Assembly: GCA_038057075.1 (NCBI GenBank)
Contig: JBBUDV010000010.1
Coordinates: 14,417-60,417 of the forward strand
Source: Patescibacteria group bacterium
GTDB taxonomy: Bacteria; Patescibacteriota; Minisyncoccia; UBA6257; UBA9933
Length of the DNA: 46,001 nt
Reading direction: 5' to 3'
Shown here: one piece after another, positions 4,208 to 45,608 of the stretch
How the letters are laid out: every line of letters begins with the position of its first letter
How positions within the stretch are numbered: the stretch's first letter is position 1
Program-made: the position numbers and the translations under genes
The notes under the pieces: generated by a model
The model's input: the letters and a program-made list of their open reading frames with translations, nothing else
Databases searched by the model: none
Told to the model about the DNA's origin: nothing

Positions 4208-7200
4208 ATGGCAGAAAACCAAAATCAAAAAATTGAAAAGAGGGAAATTTCCGACGAACTTCAGGAGTCGTATCTTGATTACGCGATGTCGGTTATTGTT
4301 TCACGCGCTTTGCCGGATGTTCGAGACGGCCTAAAACCCGTTCAAAGAAGAATTTTGTGGGCGATGTGGGAATCAGGCCTCCGCGCGTCGGCAAAATACA
4401 GAAAATCCGCCTCCGTTATCGGCGATGTTTTAAAAAGTTACCATCCGCACGGAGATATTTCCGTTTATGACGCAATGGTAAGAATGGCGCAAAATTTTTC
4501 TTTGCGCTATCCGCTGGTTGACGGACAAGGAAATTTTGGATGTTTTACAAAAGATACGGAAGTTAAATTAACAGATGGACGCGATTTAAGTTTCGGCGAA
4601 CTCGTCAAAGAGTTTAAAAAAGGCAAAAAAAATTATACTTACACAATCAATTCTTCAGGGTCTATATCTATTGGAGAAATCAAATGTCCGCGATTAACAA
4701 AAAGAAATGCCGAGCTTATAAAAATTGTTTTAGATACGGGCAATGAAATAAAGTGTACGCCAAACCATTTATTCATGTTAAAAGACACCTCTTATAAAGA
4801 GGCGCGAAATTTGACTCCCAACGATTCTTTAATGCCTTTTTATCACCGATTATCCGAAACCGCCGATCGCCTAAACAGAAAGGGTTATGTATTAATTTAT
4901 CAGCCCAAAACCGATACATGGGTCCCTGCGCATCATTTGGCGGATAATTACAATCTCACCCATAAAATATATTTAAAGAACGCGGGAAGGGTAAGACACC
5001 ATGCGGATTTTAACAAATTAAACAACAGCCCTGAAAATATCGCGAGAAAACATTGGGGCGAACATTGGAAACTACATTATGTTCATGCGTCCGAACAGCA
5101 TAAAAACCCCGAGTACAGAGAGAAAATAGCGGCTGGTCGCAAAAAATACTGGGATAATCCGTCCACTAAAATTAAATACGCAAAATTACTCTCTAAAAGA
5201 AACGTTAAAAATTGGCAAAACCCGGAATACAGGGGAAAAATGCGCCAATTTTTAAGCGATGTAAATAAAAAATTCATTCAAGAACATCCGGAAAAAAGAC
5301 AAGAGTTTAGCGAAAGGGCCACTAAAACATTGAAGCGGCTTTGGCAAAATCCCGAATACCGCGCTTTTATGCATGAAAAAATAATAAAGGGAAATAAAAA
5401 CCATCAAACCAATACGACGGGTAAGTTGAAATTTATAAACATTTGCAAAGAAATTTTAAACCTGAATCAGGATCTGAACGAAAAAAATTATGAAATAACG
5501 AGAAAAAAAGTTTATCCTTACGGCGCCGCTACGATGTGGCAAACCGGATTAAACAAATACTTCCAAAACAATCCTGATCTAATCCGCCAAGAAATCAATC
5601 AGAACCACAGGATTATTAAAGTTGAAAATCTTCAAAAAACGGAAGATGTTTACGACCTCACTATTGATGAAACTCATAATTTCTGCTTAGGAAGCGGGAT
5701 TTTTGTCCATAATTCAATTGACGGAGACTCGGCCGCCGCTTACAGATACACCGAAGCGCGACTTTCAAAAATCGCCGAAGAATTTCTCACTGACATAGAA
5801 AAAGAAACAATTGACTGGATTCCCAATTATGACGGCTCAACCCAAGAACCCAAAGTCCTTCCGTCAAAATTGCCGGCTCTTCTTCTTAACGGCACATCGG
5901 GAATCGCGGTCGGGATGGCGACAAATATTCCTCCTCACAATTTAAAGGAGGTTATTGAGGCCGCTATGCACTTGATAGACGATCCAAAATTAAACACGGA
6001 CGACTTGCTGCAATTTGTAAAAGGCCCCGATTTTCCGACAGGCGGAACCATATATGATAAAAAGGCCATTGCCGAGGCCTATTCCACCGGAAGAGGAGGC
6101 GTTACTTGCCGAGCCGTTTCCGAAATACAAGAAAGAAAAAACGGGCAATTTAACATCGTCATCAGTGAAATCCCCTATCAAGTTAATAAATCAGAATTAA
6201 TTATTAAAATCGCGGAATTGGTTCAGGAAAAGAAAGTTGAGGGAATTAAAGATTTAAGAGACGAAAGCGGACGCGAAGAAAACGTAAGAATAGTAATTGA
6301 ATTAAAAAGCGACGCCTCTCCGCAGAAAATTTTAAACCAATTGTATAAACACACCGATCTCCAGAAAAATTTCAATTATAATATGATTGCTTTGACAACC
6401 AACGGGCTTCAGCCCCAACTTTTATCGCTAAAAGAAATTTTAGAGGCCTATATTGACCACAGAAAAGAAGTGGTAAGACGCAGAGCGGAATTTGATTTAA
6501 AAAAGGCCAAAGAAAGAGCCCATATTTTGGAAGGATTGGCAAAAGCGCTCGCCATTATTGATAAAATTATAGCGGCTATTAAAAAATCAAACGATAAAGA
6601 AGAAGCCCACAAAAATTTAATCGCTAAATTCAATCTTTCCGCTCTCCAAGCAACGGCTATTTTGGAAATGCGGCTGCAAACATTGGCGGCGCTTGAAGCT
6701 AAAAAAATAGACGAGGAATTAAAAGAAAAGAAAAAAATAATAGCGGAATTGGAATTGCTTTTAAAAAGCCCGGCGAAAATATTGAAAGTTATCAAGGACG
6801 AATTAACAGGGCTTAAAGAAAAATACGGAGACGAACGCAAAACCAAAGTTATCTCCGGCGGACTGAAAGAATTCAAAGAAGAGGACTTAGTGCCCGAAGA
6901 AGAGGTTGTTATAGCCCTTTCCCAGGGCGGCTACATAAAGCGCGTTGTTGAAGACACTTTCAAAAGCCAAAAAAGAGGCGGCAAGGGGCTGATCGGTTCA
7001 GAAGTCAACGAAGAAGATTTTTTGACTAATTTTATAACCGCCAACACGCACGACAATATTTTATTTTTCACGGACCAGGGCAGAGTTTTCCAGACCAAGG
7101 TTTATGAAATTCCGCAAGGCAGTAGAACCTCAAAAGGAAAGCTGGTACAAAATTTTCTTGAAATTCCTCCCGAGGAAAAAATCAGCGCCATCGTTGCTTA

Positions 7201-11932: not shown

Positions 11933-12034
11933 TTCAAATACCTCCTTTTTTGATTTTTCAGATTTTATTTTATTGTAAAAGGGCTATTCAAGCCCTGAAA
12001 AATAGAATTTTTATACAGCTTGAAATTTATTAAA

Positions 12035-12066
12035 AAATAGCATAAAATATAATAAAAGTCAAGCTT
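12035..12066 (-). promoter_or_regulatory. sigma70 promoter of the SPFH unit
   Basis: TTGACT-N17-TATTTT with TG extension; nearly identical to 12571-12602. Confidence 0.65.
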
Positions 12067-12138: not shown

Positions 12139-12495
12139 CTATTCCTCTTTTTTGCTTTCTACATTAATCATTTTTTGAAGAATTTTACATTCTTTAAGAA
12201 ATTTTTCCCTTATAAGTTTAAGTTCTTCATACTTGTCGTATGTCCCACATGAATCATGCTTAAGCTGTCCGGGAATAAAGGCCTTAACGCCGATAATTAC
12301 ATTATTTCCGTCAATCAGACATTCTTCCGAAACCACCTCTACAAAAATCAATCTTTTACTTCCGAGCAGAGAAACAACTGCACCTTCTATGTCCTCGTTC
12401 TTCTCAATTACCACATTTTCTATGCCACAATATTTTTTTATGGCATTGACCAAATCCTCGATTTTGCACCGAAATTTCAATCCTGCGGTTTCCAT
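12139..12495 (-). CDS. Hypothetical protein
   Basis: 118-aa ORF with SD AAGGAG, own promoter and a downstream hairpin at about 12086-12118. Confidence 0.68.
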   Translation of the reverse strand: METAGLKFRCKIEDLVNAIKKYCGIENVVIEKNEDIEGAVVSLLGSKRLIFVEVVSEECLIDGNNVIIGVKAFIPGQLKHDSCGTYDKYEELKLIREKFLKECKILQKMINVESKKEE

Positions 12496-12570
12496 AATAA
12501 TCTCCTTTTCAGATTTTTTAATTTTTAAAGTTCATTTTCAACAGCCCCATTGCCATTGAAATTACCAAAA

Positions 12571-12602
12571 ATATAGCATAAACTATAATAGAAGTCAAGC
12601 TA
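12571..12602 (-). promoter_or_regulatory. sigma70 promoter of the 12139-12495 gene
   Basis: TTGACT-N17-TATATT with TG extension. Confidence 0.65.
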
Positions 12603-12656: not shown

Positions 12657-12742
12657 GCCCCAGTGGTGCAATTGGCTAGACACGCATGCCTTAGGAGCAT
12701 GTCCTGAAAAGGTTAGAGGTTCAAATCCTCTCTGGGGCACCA
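12657..12742 (+). tRNA. tRNA-Leu(TAG)
   Basis: GCCCCAG acceptor stem, anticodon arm CATGC-CTTAGGA-GCATG, long variable arm, GGTTCAAATCC, encoded CCA. Confidence 0.96.
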
Positions 12743-12765: not shown

Positions 12766-12809
12766 TTTTGTTCGTAGAATTCTGCTATCGCTAAATTCTA
12801 CGAACAAAA
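12766..12809. repeat. Hairpin repeat, copy 1 (16-bp perfect arms, 12-nt loop)
   Basis: TTTTGTTCGTAGAATT-CTGCTATCGCTA-AATTCTACGAACAAAA. Confidence 0.9.
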
Positions 12810-12830
12810 TAAATACTGCACAAAATACCC

Positions 12831-13409
12831 CTACAACCCAAAATAACTTCTCAATGGCTTATCATCATCAATCCTGACAGTTAAAATTGTTATATACACA
12901 GCTATTTCAAAAACCTCAGAAATAAAGTCAATTTCATCCTGACATTGATACGGATAAACCCAAACACTTTTCTGAAACTGAAAAAATCCTAATTGTTTTA
13001 GTTTTTCCCTAAAGGCCTCGCGCGCGTTTTTCTTTGATTCCGGTATATCAAACATTAAAAATCTCCACTTCCCATCCCACTTTTCACTATTAGAAATTTT
13101 TATTTTATCCAAATCGTATTCAAGTTTTTTCTTTTTTCCTTTTTCCGTTAGTAAAATTCTTGTATTATTACCAGTATCCTTAATTTCAATAATCTTGCGT
13201 TTTTTAAGGTCGTGTAAAGCTTTTGATAATTGGCCGGGCTTTATTTGATAGTTATCAGAAAATTTATTATTTAAATACTTATTAAGTTCTTTTAAAAATG
13301 TCCTTGTTCCAGACGGACTAGAAAGCGCAACTCCAGTTGCCGCTATAAAAATCAGCCACTCTGTCGGCGTTTTTGGTTTATTAAAATTAAATATGTTTTT
13401 ACTGCCCAT
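12831..13409 (-). CDS. PaaX-like protein (winged HTH plus Cas2-like ferredoxin domain)
   Basis: LLTEKG wing; WDGKWRFLMFDIPE, REKLKQLGF..FQKSVW. Confidence 0.88.
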   Translation of the reverse strand: MGSKNIFNFNKPKTPTEWLIFIAATGVALSSPSGTRTFLKELNKYLNNKFSDNYQIKPGQLSKALHDLKKRKIIEIKDTGNNTRILLTEKGKKKKLEYDLDKIKISNSEKWDGKWRFLMFDIPESKKNAREAFREKLKQLGFFQFQKSVWVYPYQCQDEIDFISEVFEIAVYITILTVRIDDDKPLRSYFGL

Positions 13410-13427
13410 AAATAATATTATATCATC

Positions 13428-13469
13428 TATGTTCGTAAAAATCTGCTATCGCTAATTTTTACGAATATA
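13428..13469. repeat. Hairpin repeat, copy 2 (same loop, compensatory arm changes)
   Basis: TATGTTCGTAAAAAT-CTGCTATCGCTA-ATTTTTACGAATATA. Confidence 0.9.
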
Positions 13470-13492: not shown

Positions 13493-14395
13493 TTACTTTC
13501 TGCGGCGGCCATGAAAGGCCCTGTGAATTTCTTTGAGTTCTTTGTTTGTTAAATGCGTATAAATTTGGGTGGTGGCGATATTGGCATGGCCGAGCATTTC
13601 TTGAACCGAACGCAAATCAGCGCCATTTATCAATAAGTCGGTTGCAAAAGAATGACGGAGTAAATGCGGATGGATTTTTTTGGAAATGCCGGCTTTTCTC
13701 GCGTACAAATCAACAATTCTCTGGATCGTACGCGGAATAATTCGGCCGACAATTTTTGGTTTATCCGCCTTGGTCAAACTGATAAACATCGCTTCCTCGG
13801 CGTCAATTCTTTTATCTAAATAATTCTTTATGGCTTTCTTGGCGCTGTCGGCCAAAAAAACAACCCTTAATTTATTGCCCTTGCCGCGAACCGTAAATTC
13901 CCCTCTTTTTAAATCAATATAACGACTTAAAGCGCAAAGTTCTGAAATCCGAAGTCCGGTTGAAAAAAGCACTTCCAAAATGGCTTTGTCTCGCAGACCT
14001 CTTAAATCGTTTCCTTTAGCCGCGGCCAGTAATCTTTCAAGTTCATCGTATTCTAAAATTTCAATCTGTCTGGTCGGAATTTTCGGCAATTCAATTTTGT
14101 CAGGAGATAAAACTTGATAATCATTTTTAGCCAAATACTTTAGAAAATTCCGCAAAGCGATAATATAATAACTTTGGGTGGTTTTTTTAAGCGCCCCGTC
14201 CATACCTGAAAGCCGCGCAAGATACAGCCGGAATTCTCGGACATTTTCCGGAATAATATCGCTCTCTTTTTTTATTTTGGCAAAATCAATAAATTTCCGA
14301 AGATATCGTTCATAATTCTGGCTGGTTTTAACAGACCTATTCTTCTCAATTTCCAGATAATCAAGATAATTTTTAAGAAGGGTATTTATATCCAT
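13493..14395 (-). CDS. xerC: XerC/XerD-family tyrosine recombinase
   Basis: TGLRISEL, GKGNK, HLLRHSFAT, VQEMLGH, TTQIYTH: full R-K-H-R-H-Y catalytic set plus N-terminal SAM-like domain. Confidence 0.9.
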   Translation of the reverse strand: MDINTLLKNYLDYLEIEKNRSVKTSQNYERYLRKFIDFAKIKKESDIIPENVREFRLYLARLSGMDGALKKTTQSYYIIALRNFLKYLAKNDYQVLSPDKIELPKIPTRQIEILEYDELERLLAAAKGNDLRGLRDKAILEVLFSTGLRISELCALSRYIDLKRGEFTVRGKGNKLRVVFLADSAKKAIKNYLDKRIDAEEAMFISLTKADKPKIVGRIIPRTIQRIVDLYARKAGISKKIHPHLLRHSFATDLLINGADLRSVQEMLGHANIATTQIYTHLTNKELKEIHRAFHGRRRK

Positions 14396-16085: not shown

Positions 16086-16472
16086 TTACGAATTCTTAAC
16101 TTCTTTGATAGTTTCAAGAAAGTTTTTAATGTTAAAAGGTTTTTTTAAAAAACAGTCAGCCCCTGCTAATTTAGCAGCTTTAACATCTTTATGATCAGCC
16201 GCTCCGCTGGTCATAAAAATTTTTATTTTAGGAAACAATTTTCTTGCCTCATGAACCACCGCGAGGCCCTTTTTGTTCCAGCCAAGATTAACAATCAACA
16301 TGTCAATCGACTGGGAAGCGTTGGATATTTCTCTTATCATTTCTATTGCTTTGTTGTGATTTGAAATACTAATCACATTTTCAAAAGCAACGGAAGAAAG
16401 ACTAAGCATTGCTATTAACAATCTTCTTACTTCTTTGTTTGTTTCCGCTATAAAAACCGTATGCTTTCTCAT
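16086..16472 (-). CDS. Atypical (pseudo-)receiver domain protein
   Basis: Receiver-like pattern (KIFMTSG, GADCFLKKPF), but the acidic pocket reads IAETN and the phospho-Asp position is Asn (LIVNL). Confidence 0.8.
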   Translation of the reverse strand: MRKHTVFIAETNKEVRRLLIAMLSLSSVAFENVISISNHNKAIEMIREISNASQSIDMLIVNLGWNKKGLAVVHEARKLFPKIKIFMTSGAADHKDVKAAKLAGADCFLKKPFNIKNFLETIKEVKNS

Positions 16473-29507: not shown

Positions 29508-29549
29508 ATTTGTATACATTTCATACGATCGTAGAAAGTGTATACAAAT
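29508..29549. repeat. GTATACA-N7-CGATCG-N7-TGTATAC palindrome, copy 1
   Basis: ATTTGTATACA-TTTCATA-CGATCG-TAGAAAG-TGTATACAAAT; same architecture as 45561-45608. Confidence 0.8.
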
Positions 29550-45560: not shown

Positions 45561-45608
45561 TAATCCAGTATACATTCTATGCGATCGCATAGAATGTATA
45601 CTGGATTA
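45561..45608. repeat. Perfect 48-bp palindrome (GTATAC/CGATCG family, copy 2)
   Basis: TAATCCAGTATACATTCTATGCGA|TCGCATAGAATGTATACTGGATTA. Confidence 0.92.

Follow-up and report, generated by a model that had tools for sequence, protein, structure and literature searches.

The 46,001-nt stretch of DNA analysed here, from the genome of a Patescibacteria group bacterium (contig JBBUDV010000010.1 of assembly GCA_038057075.1; hereafter the window), carries a small gene, which we call mini-PaaX, that is bracketed by two long palindromes and lies between a tRNA-Leu gene and the gene for an Xer-type tyrosine recombinase. Across homologous loci the palindromes keep their symmetry through paired changes in their arms, and the bases nearest the dyad vary together with residues in the Cas2-like domain of the protein encoded between them. 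We consider it likely, at a probability of roughly 0.6, that mini-PaaX is a PaaX-type autorepressor that acts as a dimer and has an operator on each side of its gene. No description of this gene-plus-palindromes module was found in the open-access literature, subscription journals aside. Its known part would be a PaaX-family repressor paired with an operator, and its new parts the architecture and the putative role of the Cas2-like domain.

The host is an ultra-small groundwater bacterium, and its assembly (labelled G000) comprises 582 kb in 29 contigs and is 92% complete; the contig of the window is labelled C10. Relatives' genomes are labelled G001, G004 and so on, collected homologous loci L008, L020 and so on, and the palindrome-gene-palindrome unit is called a cassette. 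Comparisons were made with an order sample of 41 genomes and an evenly drawn phylum sample of 151 genomes, each including the host's own.

The gene and its two palindromes

A preliminary description of this locus reported a hairpin pair around a PaaX/Cas2-like gene with the tRNA-Leu and the tyrosine recombinase outside it, and both the coordinates and a repeat search agree with that layout (Table 1). The downstream arms (12766-12781 and 12794-12809) are 16 nt long and 100% complementary, the upstream arms (13428-13442 and 13455-13469) are 15 nt long and 93% complementary, with one mismatch, and in both cases the arms stand 12 nt apart; counted from stems of 16 and 15 bp, the distances to the stop and start codons had been given correctly. 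The two palindromes, each about 42 nt, together form a 41-nt direct repeat, 85% identical and 661 nt apart. The window contains the 12-mer between the arms, CTGCTATCGCTA, just two times, at 12782 and 13443 and on the plus strand in both cases, against a chance expectation of 0.05, and two copies were reached in none of 100 shuffles. As single strands the palindromes fold at -15.6 and -10.1 kcal/mol, with z scores of -9.0 and -7.3 relative to shuffled sequences. The 12 nt had been described as an identical loop; identical they are, but they are not free, as the inner GC...GC pairs and leaves a 4-nt TATC tip. The two differences between the arms of the copies are both compensated, as had also been noticed, and fall at dyad positions 8 (A.T to T.A) and 11 (A.T to G.C). 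A repeat search found no regularly spaced array between 12000 and 14600, in keeping with the earlier statement that no CRISPR array is present.

In the gene product the Pfam family PaaX_M (PF20803) matches residues 109-181 with an E value of 1.3e-24 (86.5 bits against a cut-off of 24), and the NCBIfam cas2 model TIGR01573 passes its cut-off over residues 116-153 (26.4 bits against 24.5); the PaaX equivalog model TIGR02277 gives 44.7 bits, far under its cut-off of 264.55. At the N-terminus Pfam returns weak winged-helix families only, with no match to the PaaX N-domain at E<=0.01. An AlphaFold2 (AF2) model built from 29 homologues, with a predicted local distance difference test score (pLDDT) of 84.7, contains a helix-helix-helix-strand-strand (H-H-H-E-E) unit at residues 15-87. 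Foldseek places the model closest to E. coli PaaX (PDB 8A39; E 2.6e-5 over 197 aligned columns), then Rv0674 (3KFW) and then Cas2 chains. The first two match the model along its full length, and its C-terminal half matches the Cas2 chains, several of them at a Foldseek probability of 1.00. By sequence, the PDB yielded no match under E 0.35.

The PaaX_C effector domain has no match in mini-PaaX, which ends at residue 192. Asp121 of the Cas2 motif, which we take to be the catalytic (metal-binding) Asp of Cas2, is invariant among 29 sequences, and no conserved Tyr is evident. Neither Cas1 (PF01867, in the 92%-complete assembly) nor an HUH/Y1 transposase (PF01797, in the genome) was matched. Public labels for 357 homologous clusters, from 454 candidates, read PaaX, phenylacetic acid degradation regulator, Cas2 or hypothetical; for function, all of these labels mislead.

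The upstream palindrome adjoins a predicted promoter. An extended -10-like box, TGnTATAAT, begins 2 nt after the palindrome's stem, and a consensus promoter scan picks a TTTACG/TATTAT pair on the gene's strand (13439-13412) whose -35-like TTTACG lies inside the palindrome arm. Loci L008, L020, L021, L022 and L034 likewise have a -10-like hexamer beside the palindrome, 6-8 nt ahead of the ATG. From the position of the box we infer that the mini-PaaX mRNA would be leaderless or nearly so, and that the upstream palindrome would span roughly -12 to -53 of the promoter.

Conserved symmetry and residue-to-base co-variation

PaaX_M proteins occur in 25 of the 41 genomes of the order sample, at 41 places (24 of the 40 close relatives), and in 33 of the 151 genomes of the phylum sample (32 of the 150 others), with 1-7 per genome. 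For each gene the two 300-nt flanks, upstream and downstream, were compared with each other by blastn-short. In the order set (31 loci taken from the 41 places, 29 with both flanks) the flanks share a segment at 26 loci at E<=0.05 and at 22 at E<=1e-4, and at three they share none; in the phylum set they do so at 14 of 28 valid loci (L069, whose ORF call failed, is left out) at E<=1e-5. Over the full set of 95 loci, less L022 and L031, each of which lacks one flank, a palindromic segment is common to both flanks at 60 of 93 loci at E<=1e-4. Among the genes of the host genome itself 16 of 513 pass the same test, three of them PaaX-like, so that the control rate is 13 of 510. What the flanks share is a palindrome of 30-50 bp, with arms that vary from locus to locus. 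Such palindromes are mostly centred on CGATCG, with CGGCCG, CCATGG, CTCGAG, CTATAG and CATATG at other loci and the half-changed forms CTATCG, CGACCG and CGGTCG at some. Housekeeping genes make up the neighbourhood at 31 homologous loci; among 58 neighbour open reading frames (ORFs) scanned, a single IS200-like Y1_Tnp ORF (PF01797, 4.3e-13) lies upstream of the L014 cassette (G008:C16).

When the two copies at each of 50 loci are compared, 19 compensated double changes are found within 16 nt of the dyad where 2.55 are expected, a number that none of 2000 simulations reaches; one-sided arm changes number 87. (Locus L012, whose centre was mis-set, was left out of the first compensation count, and L012, L071, L090, L114, L115 and L122, whose centres were mis-registered, were left out of the co-variation and simulation sets.) The pairing of changes first noticed at the window's two copies is thus general, and on these alignments the kept symmetry is real; it fits a hairpin just as it fits duplex DNA recognised by a symmetric dimer.

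The protein enters the argument through its co-variation with the sites. We aligned 54 proteins to one profile and set their residues against the consensus half-sites of their palindromes. The four strongest pairs within the Cas2-like domain are residue 147 with base 1, 124 with base 2, 131 with base 5 and 127 with base 4. A fifth pair in the same domain, residue 153 with base 15, is comparably strong and is probably a clade signal. Where base 2 is C, residue 124 is Glu (40 of 40 loci), and all eight loci with another residue at 124 have a base other than C; two loci pair Glu124 with A. On a tree built without the columns concerned, G at base 5 and Asp131 each change 13 times, and about six of eight independent pairs are concordant with none opposed (sign test, median p 0.031). 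In the AF2 model residues 124, 127 and 131 stand on successive turns at the start of a helix, 124-140, which would lie along the groove outward from the dyad. That the encoded protein recognises its own palindromes directly and paralogue-specifically is, for an in-silico study, well supported. The suggestion, made when the locus was first described, that the protein binds its own hairpins or palindromes through its winged helix-turn-helix (wHTH) and Cas2-like domains gains from the same residue-base pairs and from the paralogue-specific arms.

These observations also bear on whether the palindromes could be RNA or transcription signals, such as terminators or processing or stability hairpins, that flank the gene by chance. 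Each copy comes shortly after the end of a minus-strand gene (xer in one case, the PaaX-like gene in the other) and folds strongly, and the genome is rich in hairpins, with 147 perfect inverted repeats of stem length at least 11. However, with T-runs upstream and A-runs downstream on both strands, the copies have the surroundings of an intrinsic terminator reversed, and a terminator scan does not call them. An Rfam search over the locus returned only the tRNA above threshold, the palindromes giving sub-threshold miRNA-model noise. The upstream copy precedes the predicted -10 box and hence would be outside the gene's own mRNA, and neither the paralogue-specific arms nor the co-variation of bases with residues of the adjacent protein is what such signals would lead one to expect. 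We regard this explanation as very improbable.

The one asymmetric feature of the window's sites is their centre. The preliminary description took it to be an invariant asymmetric loop, in the layout of tyrosine-recombinase sites. It is a quasi-palindrome, GCTATCGC, one base off GCGATCGC, and is better read as a CGATCG dyad centre in which one base has changed. CTATCG stands midway between CGATCG, from which a single substitution separates it, and the CTATAG used by other loci, and it recurs in two unrelated genomes of the phylum sample (L068, L071, L116). Proteins with this centre retain Glu124, the residue paired with C, and therefore one half-site looks sub-optimal. In the host genome GATC occurs 390 times against 1592 expected (ratio 0.24); the ratio to Markov expectation is likewise 0.24 for TCGA, and it is 0.41 for CTAG. 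Among the 16 palindromes of C(G/T)ATCG type GATC has been lost in ten, and the orientation of the asymmetric centre varies, being direct at the window's cassette and inverted at the cassette on contig C1. Because GATC is depleted, the centre is one base off and its orientation is variable, we read the asymmetry as an eroded GATC that is tolerated rather than as a directional core. GATC-specific restriction-modification was considered as the cause of the depletion and rejected, PF02086 (Dam), PF04556 (DpnII) and PF02976 (MutH/Sau3AI) all being unmatched in the 92%-complete assembly.

Palindrome families and turnover of the unit

A profile search finds three PaaX_M genes in the genome, and all three are bracketed by long palindromes whose arms differ from one paralogue to the next around a common C(G/T)ATCG centre (Table 1). 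Sixteen palindromes of this type were chosen by eye from lists of inverted repeats and centre motifs; six flank the three genes and ten stand alone. The TTCGTA family of the window's gene numbers six copies in 582 kb. Three lone palindromes have GTATACA arms, two of them inside the window, and for the one at 29508 the assembly contains no cognate gene.

One lone copy has a remnant of a gene beside it. At G000:C28:6994-7180 a stretch corresponding to 31 C-terminal amino acids, 71% identical to the C1 paralogue (tblastn E 4e-7; hidden Markov model E 0.003), lies 14 nt before the lone CGATCG palindrome at 7143-7180, and to judge from this sequence the locus is a decayed cassette that has lost its 5' part and its upstream palindrome. 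A similar origin was considered for the lone TTCGTA palindrome at G000:C19:3065 and rejected, as the ruvA/rpsT spacer in which it lies holds no PaaX-like remnant. That spacer (G000:C19:2640-3060) contains two small minus-strand ORFs, of about 48 and 55 amino acids, and a terminator; the palindrome is ~90 nt upstream of the two ORFs and 112 nt upstream of rpsT.

The bracketed layout extends to a second protein family. Two genes for TrpR-like helix-turn-helix (HTH) proteins of 136 and 129 amino acids (G000:C19:7132-7836 and G000:C23:1835-2430; PF01371 at 2.9e-10 and 2e-12) are each bracketed by a palindrome family of their own, CTCTAAT-gt-ATTAGAG and TTCAATA/TATTGAA, with lone copies on other contigs. 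The layout therefore accompanies DNA binding rather than a nuclease.

The spacer between xer and tRNA-Leu provides a record of how the unit comes and goes. A convergent tRNA-Leu(tag) gene lies within 1.5 kb downstream of xer at 14 of 30 xer loci. Five of these 14 spacers are occupied by a palindrome-gene-palindrome unit (G000, G001, G019, G008 and G004, the last with a degenerate upstream palindrome), two hold a lone CGATCG palindrome (G024, 153 nt; G038, 208 nt), three are nearly empty (G016, G040 and G010, with 18, 24 or 33 nt) and four contain other DNA that gives no PaaX-like match. The prediction that single-hairpin or empty sites would be found here is therefore supported by two solo and three empty spacers. 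The lone palindrome in G024 has its cognate cassette at another place in the same genome (L107) and differs from it by one compensated pair. A tree of 32 proteins puts the other four xer-adjacent cassettes within a single clade, and the window's protein lies across the deepest, fully supported split, beside a G004 gene located between groEL and lemA. The sister species G001 has an Xer 83% identical to that of the host; between the two cassettes, however, protein identity drops to about 30-35%, and the arms show no relation.

A trxB-like gene (five loci), grpE (three) and uvrD/rsmA (two) recur as cassette sites hosting different clades, and the other two cassettes of the host genome adjoin uvrD/rsmA and smpB/HD genes. 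Some lone copies lie in DNA absent from the relative G009: the polA/jag spacer is 350 nt here and 108 nt there, and the ruvA/rpsT spacer 638 nt here and 66 nt there. These comparisons show a presence/absence polymorphism, in which the gene and its two palindromes behave as a single unit that genomes acquire, lose and exchange for another.

Sequencing runs document the locus among strains as well. Of 12 runs listed, none of them recorded as RNA, 10 contain the stretch, and we examined Logan contigs of four (X4, X8, X9 and X10). A strain that is ~88-92% identical retains the cassette beside xer, and its upstream palindrome (13430-13465; run X10) shows no differences where the flanking genes differ by 8-12%. 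The contigs of these four runs contain no joint that skips or circularises the ~661-bp unit, although contigs cannot reveal rare forms; they stop at the upstream palindrome, and their loose ends match other genomic palindrome copies.

The setting of the window's cassette had suggested a minimal mobile cassette moved by the adjacent Xer, with the palindromes as recombination sites like those of dif, pdif modules or attC. As in those systems, a gene stands between similar inverted-repeat sites near a tyrosine recombinase, and both occupied and empty states exist. In 5 of 30 genomes the unit follows immediately on xer, and the lone and empty states at one spot are what a two-site excision would leave. 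The spacer is also prone to insertion: fragments of the tRNA-Leu 3' end, 21-33 nt long and 96-100% identical to tRNA-Leu of other genomes, are present tens of nt from the intact tRNA in the spacers of 3 of 11 relatives (L039 in G001, L056 in G020 and L051 in G015; none in the window) and may be a trace of integrase-type insertions at the tRNA.

The recombinase itself fits this role poorly. It is the product of the only Phage_integrase gene that a profile search finds in the host genome, and all 41 of the 41 genomes sampled, cassette or no cassette, carry a conserved single copy, with 55-83% identity in the 40 relatives. This one housekeeping enzyme coexists with at least three arm families, and the arms follow the cassette protein and not Xer, as the comparison with G001 illustrates. 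Xer and integrase core sites have arms of 9-13 bp around an asymmetric 6-8-bp spacer, whereas the arms here are 15-24 bp long around a palindromic centre. Most cassettes stand beside no recombinase, a Phage_integrase neighbour being present at only 2 of 31 loci scanned. We judge the Xer to be a single housekeeping recombinase that does not act on the palindromes, and its adjacency to be incidental; movement of the cassette by Xer is extremely improbable, and the part first assigned to the neighbouring recombinase finds no support.

Table 1. Positions of the mini-PaaX cassette, its surroundings and related palindromes. Plain coordinates refer to the window; those preceded by a contig label (C1, C2 and so on) refer to that contig of the assembly.
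Feature	Position	Strand	Description
mini-PaaX gene	12831..13409	minus	192 aa; predicted N-terminal winged helix and Cas2-like PaaX_M domain, without PaaX_C; palindromes with TTCGTA-type arms
Downstream palindrome	12766..12809		16-bp stem, arm core TTCGTAGAATT, centre CTGCTATCGCTA, 21 nt past stop
Upstream palindrome	13428..13469		15-bp stem, arm core TTCGTAAAAAT, centre CTGCTATCGCTA, 18 nt before ATG
TGnTATAAT extended -10-like box	13417..13425	minus	7 nt before ATG; read from sequence, predicted promoter
tRNA-Leu (anticodon tag)	12657..12742	+	ARAGORN; Rfam tRNA 52.4 bits; right boundary of spacer, context only
Xer-type tyrosine recombinase	13493..14395	minus	300 aa, Phage_integrase 4.1e-43; left boundary of spacer
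Palindromes of the C1 PaaX_M gene	C1:18380-18417 and C1:19026-19069		TATAGCACTT-type arms
Palindromes of the C11 PaaX_M gene	C11:12648-12695 and C11:13374-13419		AATTRCGGTTATTCC-type arms
Lone TTCGTA-family palindromes	C2:72885, C7:3181, C19:3065, C26:2330		family total 6 copies
Lone C11-family palindrome	C2:9394
Lone palindrome	29508..29549 (G000:C10:43924-43965)		CGATCG centre, GTATACA arms; between dnaE and thrS
Lone palindrome	45561..45608 (G000:C10:59977-60024)		perfect, 48 bp; centre GCGATCGC, related GTATACA arms; 393 nt from contig end
Other lone palindromes	C5:2613 and C28:7143

Proposed autorepression and its alternatives

How might a protein of this kind use a pair of cognate sites? 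We suggest that mini-PaaX, a winged helix and a Cas2-fold domain minus the effector-binding C-terminal domain of PaaX, forms a dimer of two-fold symmetry and in that form binds the palindromes bracketing its gene. The winged helices would read the outer arms, and helix alpha-1 of the Cas2-like domain would read the C(G/T)ATCG centre. The upstream palindrome would cover the promoter, leading to self-repression as by E. coli PaaX at Px; the downstream palindrome would be a second operator, acting by way of a loop, or as a roadblock or an insulator, at the gene end; and lone palindromes elsewhere would be extra binding sites or leftovers. The scheme is putative as regards binding, dimer formation, repression and any part played by the downstream copy, and autorepression is a reasonable inference from the placement of the upstream site.

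The closest precedent is PaaX itself, the repressor of E. coli and Pseudomonas that responds to phenylacetyl-CoA (PDB 8A39 and 3L09; TIGR02277), in which a wHTH is likewise followed by PaaX_M; 8A39 is also the best full-length structural match. The E. coli operator is reported as TGATTC(N27)GAATCA, and PaaX is said to shut off its own Px promoter by keeping RNA polymerase out (PMC9493321). Widely spaced inverted half-sites and repression of the own promoter are both, on that account, PaaX features (PMC9493321). The palindromic sites here span 34-48 bp, and by analogy both their geometry and the proposed logic match the E. coli operator and Px autorepression. In contrast to PaaX, with its approximately 305 residues, mini-PaaX is 192 residues long and has no PaaX_C effector (phenylacetyl-CoA) domain. 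Its sites flank the gene on both sides and the unit is gained and lost; its Cas2-like domain appears to read dyad bases in addition to serving as a dimer interface; and its neighbours are xer, tRNA-Leu and a 118-aa ORF, none of them a paa gene (the genome as a whole was not searched for these).

Several observations weigh against an autorepressor with flanking operators. The symmetry and the co-variation fit a hairpin ligand, of single-stranded DNA or RNA, equally well, and for residues 124 and 147 the co-variation amounts to one and two independent pairs on supported branches. At the threshold used 33 of 93 loci lack a shared flank segment, and at phylum scale only 14 of 28 have one. A repressor needs the upstream site only; the downstream copy has two genes converging on it and nothing to regulate, and several lone copies are also found between convergent genes (C7, C5 and C28), unlike a regulon. 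An invariant Asp121 would be superfluous in a pure scaffold. The downstream copy, the lone copies at convergent ends and the turnover go beyond simple regulation, and they keep alive a comparison with repetitive extragenic palindromic (REP) elements and their REP-associated tyrosine transposases (RAYTs).

In that comparison, the cassette would be a selfish system like REP/RAYT or IS200/IS605, in which the Cas2-fold protein recognises, cuts or mobilises the palindrome hairpins and spreads copies of them. RAYTs are reported always to be found between two REPs, with congruent protein and repeat trees and with complementary mutations that keep palindromy (PMC2817692). REP/RAYT and REPIN systems (PMC2817692, PMC3116915, PMC3337134) have a single-copy gene between two cognate palindromes with lone copies elsewhere, much as here, where protein and repeat likewise co-evolve and compensating changes keep palindromy. 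Extra lone copies exist for individual arm families (four for TTCGTA and one for C11), a decayed cassette is present at G000:C28, the xer/tRNA-Leu spacer exists in three states, and lone copies lie in DNA missing from a relative (polA/jag). A split between major clades separates the window's cassette from the four other xer-adjacent ones, the trxB and grpE sites likewise hold cassettes of different clades, and the Asp121 of the Cas2 motif is invariant.

Other observations weigh against such a system. The genome has no HUH/Y1 transposase, mini-PaaX is not one itself, no conserved Tyr is evident, and Cas2 itself is no integrase. Families of 2-6 copies compare with more than 100 for REPs (PMC2817692), the palindromes lack the GTAG/CGTC head, and neither a target duplication nor a precise junction can be defined. 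The same bracket surrounds TrpR-like proteins without a nuclease fold. A system of the REP/RAYT or IS200/IS605 kind is, in our estimate, unlikely, if well short of negligible. We give somewhat less credence again to a self-propagating protein-plus-palindrome replicator built on the Cas2 fold, which would recognise its palindrome base by base by means of the Cas2-like domain, process it, seed lone copies and carry the repeat-gene-repeat unit between hot spots such as xer/tRNA-Leu. If it existed, such a replicator would be a functional REP/RAYT analogue in Patescibacteria, and a candidate relative of the stage that first tied a Cas2-type protein to palindromic repeats. The likeness to Cas2 lies in the fold, in the beta1-alpha1 motif (FDIPE...R...LQKSVW) and in a palindromic repeat of CRISPR-repeat length on each side of an insert. 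Unlike Cas2, however, mini-PaaX is fused to a predicted wHTH and has neither Cas1 nor an array, the 'spacer' is the gene itself, and the repeat is present in two copies only.

An autorepressor that carries its operators with it would have several implications. Patescibacteria have tiny genomes and few recognisable regulators, and still the module occurs in about one fifth of the genomes sampled phylum-wide. If our reading is right, the loci provide a ready-made co-evolving residue-to-base recognition code for a fold held to be a dimer scaffold in PaaX and a non-specific clamp in Cas2, they explain one class of the long palindromes strewn over Patescibacteria genomes, and they make it practicable to study how a regulator travels together with its sites as one unit of gain or loss.

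Further repeats in the same genome were seen in passing. Among the 147 inverted repeats are other recurrent palindrome families (for example at C8:6092, C28:19598, C6:15497 and C29:10175); A-runs and T-runs flank them as at terminators, and their tips, GCTATCTTT/AAAGATAGC and ACCGCTCGGGTT/AACCCGAGCGGT, are conserved. The 118-aa ORF beside the tRNA-Leu (12139-12495, no Pfam family) is flanked by a 46-nt direct repeat (12020-12065 and 12556-12601, 85% identical), one copy of which lies between the ORF and the tRNA. Each unit of this repeat has inverted symmetry of its own, AGCTTGA...TCAAGCT, and contains TTGAAA/TAAAAT-like boxes; it may be a duplicated promoter. Finally, a 128-aa response-regulator-like gene at 16086-16472 of the window (G000:C10:30502-30888) has a 29-nt segment, 97% identical, in both of its 300-nt flanks.

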